This document shows, piece after piece, positions 23,769 through 33,046 of a stretch of 64,000 bases of DNA. Location: the NCBI RefSeq assembly GCF_003018255.1, contig NZ_CP027440.1, one strand, 5' to 3'. The position numbers and the translations under genes were made by a program. The notes under the pieces were generated by a model. It was not told the DNA's origin and searched no databases. It saw only the letters and a list, made by a program, of their open reading frames with translations. The stretch is from Escherichia coli (lineage in GTDB: Bacteria > Pseudomonadota > Gammaproteobacteria > Enterobacterales > Enterobacteriaceae). Every line of letters starts with the position of its first letter. Within the stretch, counting starts at the first letter, position 1.

Positions 23769-24545
23769 TCACCAGTCAAAACTTTTCACCAGCGTCAGCT
23801 CGCCAGCATTACGCATCGGTACAATAAATGTTTCCTGTTTCTCATTGACCGATCCTTCATCGGTGATCAGCGTCAGTTGGGCGGTCGTCAATTCCGTTTC
23901 GCTGCGTCCGCCATAGTAGTTGATATACACCTGATAACGTCCGTGAATCGGCGCTGGCATGGCGAAAATCTCGGGTCCGTACCCCGTCGTGACATCCATA
24001 TCCAGTGCACCACTGTTTTTCAGCACCGTGTTACCGTACCAGGCGTGTTCGCCATCGGGCGTGACAACATGGAGATCGAGATCGGTATTGTCCGTATCCC
24101 ACGAGAGAACCAGCCGTAAACGTGCACGAATCGTTCCTGTACCCGGCGTTGAGTAAAACTGCATTTTTTGCCGGCTTTGCCCATCCGGGCTGATGACCTG
24201 CACGCTGTTGCTGCCTTCCGTGAAAATATAAGGGCGTGCAAATGAACCATCGGATTCAATTCTCTGCGGCATACTGGCACCGTTGACCACCAGCCGGCCC
24301 TGCTGAACTTTACCCGCCGCAGCATAATTCTTTATTTTGCCGCGGATCTGCGCTGAGATATTTTGATCATCTGCCATGTTGACGGACGACGCCGGGTAAT
24401 TGATCGATTGTGAAAAACTGGCATCTTCACCCTCTGCCGGATGCCAGCCAGAGAGCGGTGCATCAATCTCGACTTCCTGCACACCTTCACTGTGAGCGAC
24501 AGGCGAAAGCGCCACCAGTAACAACGGAAGAAAAATCTTTCGCAT
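23769..24545 (-). CDS. yfaP: YfaP, DUF2135-family secreted protein (last gene of the yfaA-yfaP alpha-2-macroglobulin operon)
   Basis: 258-aa ORF with signal peptide; recognised as YfaP. Confidence 0.8.
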   Translation of the reverse strand: MRKIFLPLLLVALSPVAHSEGVQEVEIDAPLSGWHPAEGEDASFSQSINYPASSVNMADDQNISAQIRGKIKNYAAAGKVQQGRLVVNGASMPQRIESDGSFARPYIFTEGSNSVQVISPDGQSRQKMQFYSTPGTGTIRARLRLVLSWDTDNTDLDLHVVTPDGEHAWYGNTVLKNSGALDMDVTTGYGPEIFAMPAPIHGRYQVYINYYGGRSETELTTAQLTLITDEGSVNEKQETFIVPMRNAGELTLVKSFDW

Positions 24546-24549
24546 AGCA

Positions 24550-26199
24550 TTAGTCCATTAATAATTGTCGGGTAAGCGTTTCGATATAGTTCTCATCAAG
24601 CCCGGTGGGATAACCATCAAAGGCCAGGTGCAGATACTCATGGGTTAAATCCAGCCGATCCTGAAGCGTAAAGAAGTTACGAATAAACAGCCGTTTCTGC
24701 TGCCGATCGGTATAGGGGAAACCTGAGACTAAACGGCAAACCGCAAACACGTCTGGTTCGTTGTACCCCGTCTCACCTTGTAATATACGCCGCCACTGCG
24801 GCATTTTTTTCGCCAGCCAGGCTTTCGCTTTGGGTAATAACTGGCAGGTTGAGCGTGGCGCTCCCCAGCGGCTAAGGCTATTGTCGGGATAAGCAAACGC
24901 GAGTATCTGATCGTAACGCTCTCCCTGCCCCGCCTGGGCCGTGGCTTGCCGCCAGGAAAGCGTCCCTTCGGTAGCGCGACTGCCGTGATAATGAACCGGA
25001 TCGCCCGCATAGATAAGATCCTGCGTCCAGGCGGTCATCGTTCGCGCCCCCGTGGTAGCTGGCGAAGCAGAAACACGCTGCGTGGCGCTGCTGTCAGGGA
25101 TGGTCAGGCAATCGCCTTCCCGATTGGCGTTTTGCTGTAAAAAAGTGCGTATCGCCACGGTCATGGCTTTCGCTGCCTCAGGTGGCGTACTTTTCGCCTC
25201 ACGATCCAGAACTCTGGCAACGTACTCTTCACGATCGAGATGCGACTGCAATTTCAGTTTGCCCTTTTCGCTCAGTAAGGTCGTCTCACCGTGGCTGACA
25301 AACATAATGTGGTTACCATTGGCAAACGTCACACGATAGCGCCCATTAAGTACGCCGGGTTTTACTGCCGTCGAACTCTTTTCCGCCGTGATTTTCTTCA
25401 GCGGATAGCGGGCAAACAGCTCCACCAGGACACATTGCCCACTGGCAACTTGCGTCGGCACTGGCAAAACCCGATTAAGCACCGTCGCATAACGGGTCAG
25501 TACCGTTTTGCTGGTGCCACTGCCAGTCACCCACAGCGGTGTACCATCGGTTAACCAGCCGGCAAAACCACCCTGACGGATTTCCTGTTTATCATCGGCA
25601 AACCAGCTCCAGGTTTTCACCCGTACCCGACTGCCGAGCATGGATGCGACACCGATTTTCGCCTCGTCCAGCACCACATCCAGTAAGACTTCCTGAGCTT
25701 TGTTTTGCGCAGGTAACGTCGCTAATGAATCAAGCAGCGAGTTAACCGTTACCGAGGTTTCTGGCTTCAGCGTAGTAAGAGACGCTAACCACGCAGGTGC
25801 CTGACGCTGTTGCCAATATTGCCCCCACACATCTGCGCCAATATGCAACCGCTGCGGCGCAAAATAGAGCCCACAGGAACGTACCAGCGCGGTATCGCGC
25901 GTTATACTCTCCCCAGCCTGACAACAATAAACCTCTTCCGGGGAGTTTCCGCGACACTGGTAGGGCTGCTCCGGTTGATGGGTATCCTCCAGCCAGGCGT
26001 AAACATACAGTTTCCACAAACTCCCTAACGGCGTGGTGAGCGTGTCAGGTAATGCCGAGACTTTGGTCACGCCTGATGACGACAGCTGATACAGTTGATC
26101 GTGCTGCGCACCGCGCAGCACCAGTTGTAACGGCGTCTCCTCCGCAAGCGTTGGCAGAGTAACCAACGCCAATAGCCAGACGATTCTGCGCCAGTTCAC
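24550..26199 (-). CDS. yfaQ: YfaQ, DUF2300-family secreted protein
   Basis: 549-aa ORF with signal peptide; directly downstream of yfaS on the same strand. Confidence 0.8.
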   Translation of the reverse strand: MNWRRIVWLLALVTLPTLAEETPLQLVLRGAQHDQLYQLSSSGVTKVSALPDTLTTPLGSLWKLYVYAWLEDTHQPEQPYQCRGNSPEEVYCCQAGESITRDTALVRSCGLYFAPQRLHIGADVWGQYWQQRQAPAWLASLTTLKPETSVTVNSLLDSLATLPAQNKAQEVLLDVVLDEAKIGVASMLGSRVRVKTWSWFADDKQEIRQGGFAGWLTDGTPLWVTGSGTSKTVLTRYATVLNRVLPVPTQVASGQCVLVELFARYPLKKITAEKSSTAVKPGVLNGRYRVTFANGNHIMFVSHGETTLLSEKGKLKLQSHLDREEYVARVLDREAKSTPPEAAKAMTVAIRTFLQQNANREGDCLTIPDSSATQRVSASPATTGARTMTAWTQDLIYAGDPVHYHGSRATEGTLSWRQATAQAGQGERYDQILAFAYPDNSLSRWGAPRSTCQLLPKAKAWLAKKMPQWRRILQGETGYNEPDVFAVCRLVSGFPYTDRQQKRLFIRNFFTLQDRLDLTHEYLHLAFDGYPTGLDENYIETLTRQLLMD

Positions 26200-30819: not shown

Positions 30820-31361
30820 GTCATAAGTTGTTGCAGACTGACTGCGCGCATTCCGTTGTCAGTTTTCGTGGCGCTTCCGGTGTGGTAGATGACGTAACGC
30901 CCCATCCAGACCATTAAGTGCTGGGCATCGCCCTGATCGAAAAAAATCATATCGCCAGGCAGCGCCTGGTTTATGTCCTGGCCAATAAATTGGCTGTTGT
31001 ACTGAATCAAATTAATTGCGGTCACGTAGGGGCCGGTTTTCCCGTTCCCCTGATTCCAGTTTTGCGCCAGTTGCCGCTGTTCAGGTGTTAGCGTCATCTC
31101 TGGCGGCAAATACTGGTTAGATAACCCGTTACTTTTTAGCCATTTACTGTCGTGAACTTTCAGCGTCTCGTTCGCTGCAAATCGCACCAGGCCCGCACAA
31201 TCCTGCTGATACCAGCGTGGACTTGGACCCTGGCGGAGCTGTTCCTGTGCAATGCGTACAAACCAGGCGCGAAACAGCCCGGATTGTTCGACATTCAGCA
31301 TTTCGCTATGGGTAACAACACAACACAGCCAGCAAATCAGCGCCAGCAGCCCGTGTCTCAT
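30738..31361 (-). CDS. yfaT: YfaT, DUF1175-family protein
   Basis: Start set at [12 protein letters not shown] (207 aa) inside the 216-codon ORF; 3' end overlaps the longest yfaS ORF. Confidence 0.75.
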
Positions 31362-33046
31362 AGCGGTTGCCAGGTTATGGGTAGCCACTGCCAGGCGGCA
31401 CCGGGTTCCATCTGGGCCAGCTTCATGACATAACGCGGTTGTTGAGATAAAGCGTCCAGCTTCGGCATTAATAAAGTTTGTGCGGCGTTATAAAAAACCG
31501 GTTCGAGATTCTTCGGCAAACTGGTCAGCGTTTCGTTACGCAGCAGTTTCGCCACGCCTTGTGGATTGATATAGAGCGGAACGATGCCGTCAGTGGGTAT
31601 CACATCCACCATTGCCGGGCGGGTTTTATTCAGTGTTTGCAGCGCGTTATTAACCAGCGTGTCATCGAGGGAGAAAAGCATCGTCTTGTTTTGCATCGCC
31701 AGCGACACGCGGAAAAAATAATCCGACATTAATTGATCGGGTTGCACCGCCTGCGCTTTCGGATACTGGCCGTATCGGGAACTCACTTCGCGACGCCAGA
31801 TTTGCGCTTCGCCCTGCTGAGTCTGGTTTACCGGCAAAACACCTTCTGGCGCTTTGCTTTCGTGCGCACCAATATTTTGCGTAAACAGTTTCCCAGGCAG
31901 TTGTGCCTGTTCGGCTGAGCCATCAAATTGACCAACAAATAGCGGGGTTTGTAATTTTGAGTCTTCATACCAGCACAGCCCGGCTGCACCATCTAACGCC
32001 CCGTTCAGCTTGTCGTTTTCCTGGCTGATGTGCGAAAGCATCTCTTCGGCAATACCATGCGAATACGGCACCGCCACACAGAAGCTGGCCCCGGCAGGCA
32101 TACTGTTCCATACCGGCGTAAAATCGAAACTGGCATCTACGCTGGCGGATTCATCATTTAACGCCACAAAGCTATGCCAGCCGTCGTTGCTCATTTCGAA
32201 GCGTACGCCAGCAAAAGAAGGCATTAATCGCTGGTAGCCAAACCCCAGCAACCTGGCGCTGACAACAATACGCTGGCGTACTGGCGTTTTTTCAGCAGCA
32301 CGCTCTTCCAGGCCAAAGCTGGCTTGCCAGCGTTTTTTACCGCTCAACAAATCACTTGCGATCGCCGTGGCTTCGGTATCCTGCTGGTCATCTTTAAACA
32401 GCATATCCGTACTGGAAAACACCAGCATCTTGTCCTGATAAGTCGCGAACATCAGGGCGTTATTGCCGTTATAGCGCAACTGATAAACCGGGATGGTTTC
32501 ACTATTTAGCTTAATACTACTGATTTCCGTTTTGCTTAACTGGCTGTCGCTGGTAGCGGCAAACAACAATGGCTCCAACAGTTTGCTTAAACCACTGCGC
32601 TGGATCAGCACCATGTAATGTGAAAGATGGCCTTGTTTATCGTGCCATAGCGCCGCCTGCGCGGGCTGATCTAAGAGTGACGAAAAGAGCTTATCTTTCA
32701 GCGTGAGATCGTGTTCATAGACAATGCGGCGAATGCTGCCTTCAATGCCCAGACGATCGGCATGATTCTGATAATAGAAAACGAAATCTTCACTCAGAAC
32801 ATCGTGGAGAAACGGAATGGTAAGGAGGTCTTTGGGAAGCTGGCTCAGAGAGTCGCTGTCGAGAAAGAGGTCCGGCTCATTGAGATCGATTTGCAGATTG
32901 TTGTGCACCACCAGCGGCGACAACGTTTTTTCTGGCCCACTGCCAGCATATTGCAACGCCCAGACGCCAGCGGAAAGCAGTACTATTGCGCCCAAACCTA
33001 CAAGACCATAGAACCGCCAGCCTTTCGCCTTTTTTTCACCACTCAT
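31358..33046 (-). CDS. yfaA: YfaA, DUF2138-family protein (first gene of the operon)
   Basis: Start set at [10 protein letters not shown] (562 aa) inside the 576-codon ORF; stop overlaps yfaT start by 4 nt. Confidence 0.75.

Follow-up and report, generated by a model that had tools for sequence, protein, structure and literature searches.

The five co-oriented genes yfaA-yfaT-yfaS-yfaQ-yfaP, which abut or overlap on the minus strand at positions 23769-33046 of a 64,000-nucleotide stretch of Escherichia coli DNA (the window; contig NZ_CP027440.1 of assembly GCF_003018255.1), were identified very securely as the E. coli five-gene Mag-type ('type II') bacterial alpha-2-macroglobulin (A2M) operon. 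yfaA is magB, yfaT is magC, yfaS is magD, yfaQ is magE and yfaP is magF; a magA paralogue is lacking. Judged from its Mag orthologues in Pseudomonas aeruginosa, the operon probably encodes an inner-membrane-tethered periplasmic protease trap together with its helper proteins. As such it is already known: the locus belongs to the E. coli core and is annotated as a matter of routine, and its K-12 pseudogene is already in the MG1655 annotation. It is little studied in E. coli in the narrow sense of E. coli-specific experiments, and a literature search found no experimental work on the E. coli operon itself. Genes of the yfaS type were reportedly first described by Budd et al. 2004 (Genome Biol 5:R38). 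The first-pass annotation of the window had proposed an intact operon in this gene order; the open reading frames (ORFs) bear this out, and the yfaA start at 33046 is also the end that it had given for the unit. The genes are as follows.

23769-24545, minus strand: yfaP, MagF/MagA family (DUF2135/YfaP_C), 258 residues; predicted secreted A2M-binding partner
24550-26199, minus strand: yfaQ, MagE orthologue (two DUF2300 domains and SpoIID), 549 residues from a GTG start; predicted to be secreted, with three apparent modules
26200-30804, minus strand: yfaS, MagD orthologue, periplasmic A2M-family protein, 1534 residues from M6; the maximal ORF has 1539 codons and starts at 30819
30738-31361, minus strand: yfaT, MagC orthologue (PF06672/DUF1175), NlpC/P60-like, 207 residues from the K-12-type start; maximal ORF 30738-31388
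31358-33046, minus strand: yfaA, MagB orthologue (DUF2138), bitopic inner-membrane anchor or scaffold, 562 residues from M15, the K-12-type start; maximal ORF 31358-33088

The operon is flanked upstream by gyrA (33195-35822, minus strand) and on its other side by the convergent atoB (22511-23695, plus strand). Its junctions are those of a translationally coupled operon. yfaA and yfaT overlap by 4 nt (ATGA, with the ATG of yfaT lying over the TGA of yfaA), the yfaS stop codon directly abuts the GTG of yfaQ, which is preceded by AGGTGA, and a 4-nt gap separates yfaQ from yfaP.

Synteny was analysed by scanning one genome per species with the YfaT/MagC profile, which gave 80 loci (72 Pseudomonas and 8 Enterobacterales). 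The mag order was found in 72 of the 72 Pseudomonas loci, with the full DUF2135-DUF2138-MagC-A2M-DUF2300-DUF2135 arrangement (magABCDEF) wherever the stored DNA covers it. The eight Enterobacterales loci (three Escherichia species, two Superficieibacter, Enterobacillus, Yersinia alsatica and Edaphovirga) all have the A-T-S-Q-P order with the first gene absent, one of them ending after yfaS. Identity across the mag-type loci compared was 43-97%. Only in Escherichia does the operon adjoin gyrA among the loci examined, which fits a patchy, mobile history; gyrA occupies the side upstream of yfaA, and no DUF2135 gene lies there. Pfam assigned YfaA to DUF2138, YfaT to PF06672 (named 'MagC'), YfaQ to two DUF2300 domains flanking SpoIID, and YfaP to DUF2135/YfaP_C. 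The P. aeruginosa MagABCDEF operon (PA4492-PA4487) therefore shares with the E. coli operon the same families in the order B-C-D-E-F, and the A2Ms of Pseudomonas mag operons are 51-55% identical to YfaS. The predicted signal peptide of YfaS, with no clear lipobox, and the predicted single membrane helix of YfaA likewise resemble MagD and MagB. The systems differ in that Pseudomonas has magA, a magF paralogue that is absent from all of the Enterobacterales loci examined. In Pseudomonas, mag regulation goes via Gac/Rsm; RetS and RsmA control MagD synthesis (PMC3735191). In two Pseudomonas loci (L030 211-6117; L061 1168-7062, minus strand) a second A2M-like ORF of about 1965 residues, 21-22% identical to YfaS, was observed in divergent orientation just upstream of the mag operon.

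The mechanism that this orthology suggests draws on work in P. aeruginosa. MagD is periplasmic and inner-membrane-associated and is cleaved in vivo from 165 to 100 kDa; elastase changes its shape, and MagA, MagB and MagF co-purify with it (PMC3735191). MagA, MagB and MagF each bind MagD 1:1, MagB acts as the membrane anchor and stabiliser of the Mag complex, and MagD with an engineered tobacco etch virus (TEV) protease bait traps the protease stably without a thioester (PMC5764988). DUF1175/MagC is NlpC/P60-like, apparently inactive and peptidoglycan-binding (PMC10318531, citing Zouhir et al. 2021, FEBS Lett). The P. aeruginosa mag operon protects against the peptidoglycan-targeting type VI secretion system effectors VgrG3 and Tae1 (PMC12663445). 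The four partner genes, which the first-pass annotation had regarded as having no assigned function, are thus orthologues of magB, magC, magE and magF, for which the MagB anchor, the 1:1 binding of MagF to MagD and a MagC structure are on record. If the E. coli proteins behave alike, YfaS would be exported, YfaA would retain it on the periplasmic side of the inner membrane, and YfaP would bind it 1:1. The bait-region and A2M domains are joined by an exposed linker; a protease cutting there would trigger a conformational change in YfaS, and the cage would close on the protease sterically and non-covalently. The assembly may then protect the envelope, among other things from enzymes that competitors inject to attack peptidoglycan. 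YfaT, as an NlpC/P60-like peptidoglycan binder, and YfaQ would connect the trap to the cell wall, to judge from structure and sequence.

The domain content of YfaS agrees with its earlier assignment to the A2M family. A profile search (1534-residue numbering) found MG2 at 344-440 (4.6e-19), A2M_BRD at 661-806 (1.9e-17), A2M at 871-953 (4.6e-12) and bMG10 at approximately 1409-1517 (1.2e-5), which is the series of macroglobulin (MG), bait-region and A2M domains of the alpha-2-macroglobulin/complement C3 superfamily; weak sequence matches to the MG domains of C5 and CD109 were found in the PDB. The segment of about 450 residues from A2M to bMG10 gave no Pfam match to the thioester domain (TED) and carries a degenerate thioester-region signature that aligns with ECAM and with CVEQ-bearing relatives. 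A candidate bait and the thioester site were located as follows.

28180-28284, minus strand: bait-like linker, residues ~841-875, identified by its position between the Pfam domains A2M_BRD and A2M
27589-27600, minus strand: degenerate thioester site, G-V-I-N at the C-x-E-Q position, aligning with PYGCLEQTAS of YfhM/ECAM and PYGCVEQTAS of relatives

The linker contains a short variable stretch flanked by a conserved basic segment, ERxVKxLERPRRE. Residues 841-875 are the putative bait, and their position fits the 91 and 74 kDa products of cleavage of the engineered MagD bait (PMC5764988).

Neither C.EQ nor C..Q occurs anywhere in YfaS, which has only two cysteines, C30 in the signal region and C1194. 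The context of the thioester site reads PWG-GVIN-T, and because Cys, Glu and Gln are all replaced a thioester is impossible; the earlier remark that the translation lacks CxEQ was borne out both by the motif search and by the aligned position. There is practically no chance that YfaS is a covalent thioester trap like ECAM/YfhM and human A2M, with an overlooked motif: close relatives do carry PYGCVEQ at the homologous site, so the family can form a thioester, but GVIN offers neither Cys nor Gln, C30 and C1194 lie outside any C.EQ or C..Q context, and the sequence refutes the idea. The thioester Cys is also absent in MagD (PMC3735191), from which type II bacterial A2Ms have been defined as being without the thioester motif. 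YfaS lacks the CxEQ of type I and shows the thioester absence that marks type II.

This absence was set against two samples. The family has roughly 870 members at E below 1e-30. The first sample took, from full-length representatives of 50% clusters, the 39 that resemble YfaS most closely (33-51% identity over the whole protein), and 31 of these keep PYGC[VIAT]EQ; P0003, a CxEQ bearer that is 51% identical to YfaS, is followed by DUF2300 and YfaP_C genes. The second covers those of the 80 loci from which the A2M gene was recovered, 69 in Pseudomonas and 8 in Enterobacterales, with the following motifs.

Pseudomonas, CVEQ: 16 loci
Pseudomonas, GGVEQ: 51 loci
Pseudomonas, YCGVEQ: 2 loci
Enterobacterales, GGV[IV]N: 8 loci

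The GVIN of YfaS is thus more degenerate than the GGVEQ of the 51 thioester-less Pseudomonas loci. In a neighbour-joining tree (no support values) the Enterobacterales form one clade, consistent with a single thioester loss, the GGVEQ forms of Pseudomonas stand in at least three separate places beside CVEQ forms, and eight further thioester-less representatives are scattered among CVEQ bearers. Thioester loss looks, from these sequences, lineage-specific and recurrent. As 16 of the 69 Pseudomonas mag A2Ms and 31 of the 39 close relatives keep CxEQ, thioester absence is not a reliable family criterion. The 'thioester-less bacterial A2M class' in which YfaS had been placed at first pass therefore does not hold as a clean class; it is a state reached by some lineages, and most of the closest relatives keep PYGC[VIAT]EQ. 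The PYGCVEQ-bearing A2Ms belong to six-gene mag operons of 16 Pseudomonas species, e.g. P. viridiflava, P. panipatensis, P. delhiensis, P. indica and P. citronellolis (loci L013, L020-L023, L027, L034, L036-L038, L040, L043, L045, L047, L061 and L083; A2M gene at ~10480-15300). The A2Ms of P. jinjuensis and P. schmalbachii (L029 and L044) read PYCGVEQ, with the Cys one residue N-terminal to its position in CVEQ.

In comparison with the type I proteins ECAM (YfhM) of E. coli and Sa-A2M of Salmonella, YfaS shares the superfamily, the multi-MG architecture, the bait-region domain, A2M and bMG10, and the thioester-region motifs of ECAM (PYGCLEQTAS; FALWDKNGDEEYWLTAYV) align with it. The identity between ECAM and YfaS is only ~19%. 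ECAM has CLEQ and the lipobox LAGC; in YfaS the thioester is missing and no lipobox is conserved. The type I partner is PbpC alone, whereas YfaS has four Mag-type partners, with yfaT and yfaQ as neighbours and no pbpC. Both A2M genes are co-transcribed with a protein of peptidoglycan-enzyme fold, penicillin-binding protein (PBP) 1C for ECAM and YfaQ for YfaS, and since YfaT and YfaQ are predicted to be wall-directed, the operon would parallel the type I ECAM-PBP1C pairing of a trap with wall maintenance.

Export of YfaS depends on where its translation starts. The features concerned are the following.

30738-30804, minus strand: yfaT/yfaS overlap, 67 nt (from M6); the Shine-Dalgarno sequence and ATG of yfaS lie inside the yfaT codons for WKDTRW
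30691-30804, minus strand: predicted YfaS signal peptide, MDTQRF...GLANA, cleaved before DD; its first 22 codons lie inside yfaT

M6 at 30804 has the Shine-Dalgarno sequence GGAAGGA 6 nt upstream of its ATG and is the same as the annotated start in K-12; M1 (30819) has none. The start is most probably M6, which gives 1534 residues, and M1 is less likely. The 1539 codons counted at first pass hold as the uninterrupted maximal ORF, not as the length of the protein. An open alternative frame beginning 82 nt before the magC stop is present in nearly all of the 80 related loci. Most other Enterobacterales loci examined, like those of Pseudomonas, have an internal Met shortly after the stop codon of magC, and a start there yields a short signal peptide of canonical type. 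Comparison of orthologues found no such Met codon after the yfaT stop in Escherichia, where translation must therefore start inside yfaT; E. coli yfaS needs the overlap start for export. The possibility that the overlap is an artefact of ORF calling was rejected on this ground, as M6 inside yfaT is required for export when no internal start exists. YfaS was also considered as a lipoprotein, since IAAC in its signal region matches a lipobox; this was rejected as the main reading because the Cys is not conserved in orthologues, which keep the downstream AxA-type site ahead of an acidic mature N-terminus.

Only M6 combines a Shine-Dalgarno sequence with an export signal. In the PGAP annotation of strain JNE112863 the A2M gene starts at the GTG codon V36 (30714) and has 1504 residues (window 30714-30819; L002 10215-10239), and the lengths called for this gene in other assemblies are 1464 or 1504 residues. 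The V36 start avoids the yfaT overlap but would delete the signal peptide. This looks like a systematic mis-call of the yfaS start in gene annotation. Across the five products, export signals were predicted on four, and YfaA has a single predicted membrane anchor.

YfaT matches the sequence of the P. aeruginosa MagC crystal structure (PDB 7bk8) with a phmmer E value of 5.6e-104 and 76% identity over 187 columns, has a predicted signal peptide of 19 residues, and shares with MagC residues C55, H148 and H160 at positions like those of the NlpC/P60 triad; it has both the sequence likeness to 7bk8 and the Cys-His-His set of the MagC family. YfaA has one predicted N-terminal membrane helix, as in MagB, and no convincing structural neighbour was found for its model (pLDDT 76). 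YfaP has a predicted classical signal peptide, MRKIFLPLLLVALSPVAHS. Pfam PF09906 (DUF2135) was found in 38 of the 38 YfaP family members. YfaP is 49-60% identical to the product of the last gene of Pseudomonas and other non-Escherichia loci and 37-43% identical to that of the first (MagA); the DUF2135 family is duplicated in Pseudomonas (MagA and MagF), and E. coli has only the copy in the MagF position. No PDB relative of YfaP was detectable by sequence, and a profile search gave only chance-level matches. Single-sequence searches of the PDB with YfaQ, YfaP and YfaA returned nothing useful, and the YfaQ profile search only weak SpoIID matches. An NCBIfam scan of all five proteins placed YfaA in an uninformative 'hypothetical protein' equivalog and gave matches below cutoff for YfaP and YfaQ.

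For YfaQ, 30 orthologues sharing 52-95% identity with the window protein were aligned, and the AlphaFold2 model built on them has a mean pLDDT of 81.6. Foldseek matched the model to class A/D beta-lactamases and the BlaR1 sensor with probability 1.00, and the PBP/beta-lactamase fold of the N-terminal domain was matched by two methods; no significant sequence similarity of YfaQ to any PBP or beta-lactamase was found. The modelled region 22-245 comprises strands, a helix (59-72) starting at S60-L-W-K63, an all-alpha region with S108-C-G110, a strand (192-200) with K195-T-W197, two more strands and a C-terminal helix. Two of the motifs were mapped to the window.

26011-26022, minus strand: YfaQ S60-L-W-K63, SxxK at the N-terminus of helix 59-72, invariant in the 30 orthologues
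24628-24642, minus strand: YfaQ H520-E-Y-L-H524, HExxH in a C-terminal helix, invariant and followed by invariant D535, E536 and E540

S108-C-G110 and K195-T-W197 are likewise invariant. The SxxK, SxN-type and KTG-type motifs thus follow the canonical order, each on the secondary-structure element where it would be expected, the third being atypical (KTW), and in the model SxxK/SCG/KTW would be the active-site motifs of YfaQ. The order SxxK, S-x-G, K-T-W is shared with beta-lactamase and BlaR1-MecR1 sensor domains, from which YfaQ differs by KTW instead of KTG. A SpoIID Pfam domain (312-374) was found in 30 of the 30 orthologues, and E334, which is invariant, falls in the alignment on the Glu of the 'SEM/GEM' segment of SpoIID, which we take to be the catalytic Glu. 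The middle domain thereby has both the SpoIID domain and the catalytic-type Glu of the SpoIID/LytB family, a likeness to the SpoIID/SleC lytic transglycosylases. The last 65 residues are modelled as three strands, a helix (512-526) with HEYLH, and a helix with D535, E536 and E540. A zincin-like role of this C-terminus is suggested by the motif and the modelled helices; sequence searches of the PDB and fold searches found no peptidase match for it. The catalytic-type motifs of YfaQ are invariant across E. coli, Yersinia and Pseudomonas. The combination of a PBP fold, a SpoIID-like domain and a C-terminal HExxH is unlike that of the SpoIID/SleC, beta-lactamase or BlaR1-MecR1 families; the BlaR1 protease domain is membrane-embedded and N-terminal, and the HExxH of YfaQ is soluble and C-terminal.

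These features allow a more speculative proposal, which we consider doubtful: YfaQ/MagE might be the missing active Mag component, coupling peptidoglycan damage to macroglobulin processing or activation, or to local wall repair. Its PBP-fold module would bind, or be acylated by, D-Ala-D-Ala-type stem peptides, and the other modules would be a SpoIID-like lytic transglycosylase and a C-terminal HExxH peptidase.

The main rival to a protease trap is that the operon is primarily a module for peptidoglycan surveillance or repair, in which the A2M-like protein serves as scaffold or damage sensor and YfaQ and YfaT do the enzymatic work; we regard it as possible but rather unlikely. In one variant a YfaQ protease would perform the 165 to 100 kDa processing of the A2M, as a BlaR1-like sensor joined to a zinc protease. 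The cell-wall-enzyme folds and invariant residues of YfaQ (S60xxK63, K195-T-W, E334 and H520ExxH524) and YfaT (C55, H148 and H160) argue for such a module, repeated thioester loss fits a role independent of covalent capture, and the sole phenotype seen in vivo is that the operon protects against effectors which target peptidoglycan, one being lysozyme-like (PMC12663445). However, the A2M cage is kept and conserved in its entire architecture, as is the bait-region domain, MagD traps protease in vitro after bait cleavage (PMC5764988), DUF1175 is described as catalytically inactive (PMC10318531), and the activity of YfaQ/MagE is only predicted, the HExxH assignment consisting of a motif and predicted helices. 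The altered MagD forms in magE and magC deletion strains (PMC5764988) also favour the module, although the magC deletion may have removed the overlapping magD translation start region, which would confound that phenotype.

Several further points weigh against the protease trap itself. Trapping by MagD was seen only with an engineered TEV site. VgrG3 is lysozyme-like and not a protease (PMC12663445), so a bait-cleavage trap fails to explain the protection against this effector. In gel filtration neither MagC nor MagE formed a stable binary complex with MagD (PMC5764988), and MagE has been reported as cytoplasmic and not stably complexed (PMC3735191, PMC5764988), which conflicts with the signal peptide and periplasm-type folds of YfaQ. 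The putative bait linker is largely conserved, not hypervariable. The literature search found no experiment on the E. coli proteins, and K-12 does without full-length YfaS and has no known phenotype from it. Finally, two terminator-like hairpins and no recognisable promoter lie upstream of yfaA; a scan for sigma-70-like promoters in the 148-bp gyrA-yfaA spacer found none. The hairpins are as follows.

33158-33175, minus strand: terminator-like hairpin directly past gyrA, upstream of yfaA
~33118-33142: second hairpin, with a T-run, in the gyrA-yfaA spacer

MG1655 annotates yfaS as pseudogene b4500, and alignment of the window gene with it showed no indels and 141 substitutions, of which TGG>TGA, giving W1373* in the 1539-codon frame (codon 1368 in 1534-residue numbering), is the sole lesion.

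26701-26703, minus strand: Trp codon TGG, upstream of bMG10; reads TGA in K-12, whose pseudogene has no other lesion

Because the stop precedes bMG10 (26254-26580), a K-12 YfaS product would be without this domain. The first-pass statement that K-12 yfaS is a pseudogene was correct, and that it is split was not: the lesion is a nonsense point mutation, with neither frameshift nor physical split. In the window yfaS is, as had been stated, one uninterrupted ORF of 1539 codons with no stop. The differences between the window and K-12 are given below by gene.

yfaS: 26 amino-acid changes, 141 nt differences
yfaP: 0 amino-acid changes, 18 nt differences
yfaQ: 8 amino-acid changes, 35 nt differences
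yfaT: 2 amino-acid changes, 11 nt differences
yfaA: 13 amino-acid changes, 64 nt differences

These differences are mostly synonymous in all five genes, which indicates purifying selection on the operon. The locus was matched in 5425 of 5426 complete E. coli genomes, with a single contiguous match over at least 80% of its length in 5176. A 30-mer with the K-12 stop allele was found in 364 of the 5426 genomes; among the matches listed, all carriers are K-12 derivatives or K-12-sized O16:H48 genomes, and the stop-allele genomes are apparently all K-12 derivatives. The 30-mer with the Trp allele was found in at least 4275 complete genomes, and those with neither 30-mer presumably differ at flanking sites. 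With a near-universal locus and a stop allele in 364 genomes, an intact yfaS is the norm in E. coli and not a trait of this strain. The proposal that the strain keeps a functional yfaS stands in so far as the gene is intact and has a signature of purifying selection; as a distinguishing feature it falls, since nearly all non-K-12 E. coli are alike.

It is very improbable that the operon is a decaying Escherichia relic which lost its thioester and is heading for a pseudogene cluster as in K-12. In favour of decay, the K-12 nonsense mutation has no known cost, Enterobacterales (GGV[IV]N) have a more degenerate thioester site than Pseudomonas (GGVEQ), the distribution of the family over Enterobacterales is patchy and its chromosomal location varies, approximately 250 of the 5425 genomes are without a single contiguous match over at least 80% of the locus, and yfaA is in two ORFs in E. 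albertii NBRC 107761. Against decay stand the occurrence of the locus in all but one of the complete genomes with full-length coverage in 5176, the confinement of the stop allele to the K-12 laboratory lineage, the large excess of synonymous over non-synonymous changes in all five genes and the invariance of the catalytic-type motifs from E. coli to Yersinia and Pseudomonas. In E. albertii NBRC 107761 (L010 8241-9944) the two yfaA ORFs encode 346 and 216 residues, which suggests either a disrupted anchor gene or a sequencing error. Only 78 of the 5425 genomes match window positions 23500-33300 at 99% identity or more, most matching at 96-97.6%, and the window therefore comes from an E. coli lineage that is comparatively rare. 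Its nearest match is the genome of JNE112863, a human isolate from Japan (99.8% identity).

Beyond the operon, the following feature was found by direct reading in the spacer between the convergent atoB and yfaP.

23705-23732, no single strand: bidirectional intrinsic terminator for the convergent atoB and yfaP, ACACCCGATA-GCGAAAGT-TATCGGGTGT, with A and T runs at its flanks

Its hairpin is perfect, with 10 bp. A simple terminator consensus scan missed it and gave a site count not above shuffled controls. Many genomes, O157:H7 among them, match window 23500-33300 only from the yfaP stop onwards (query position 269), and E. whittamii has rcsC immediately downstream of yfaP; the neighbouring atoSC-atoDAEB block (~16445-23695) is therefore a presence/absence polymorphism. 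GyrA of the window (33195-35822, minus strand) has wild-type S83 and D87 and no quinolone-resistance substitution, and differs from that of K-12 only by D678E despite 59 nt differences. The gene for ecotin (eco), a periplasmic serine-protease inhibitor, lies at window 938-1447 (plus strand), ~22 kb from the A2M operon; that two unrelated periplasmic protease-defence genes, eco and yfaS, occur in one neighbourhood is probably a coincidence.

For the E. coli operon, these results make K-12 the wrong strain for study. Non-K-12 E. coli, including B strains (REL606), carry the Trp codon, and a single-base change of TGA to TGG at the K-12 equivalent of window 26701 would restore yfaS. For the family, the split into type I with a thioester and type II without fails inside Mag-type operons, and the natural variants CVEQ, GGVEQ, YCGVEQ and GGVIN in syntenic operons provide a comparative series on the contribution of the thioester. 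MagE/YfaQ, for which a possible chaperone role is the only description so far, has modelled folds of cell-wall enzymes, and its invariant catalytic-type residues are open to mutation. Should YfaQ prove to be the active component, a trap would be paired with a wall enzyme in both types of bacterial A2M, which would explain the many independent losses of the covalent thioester.

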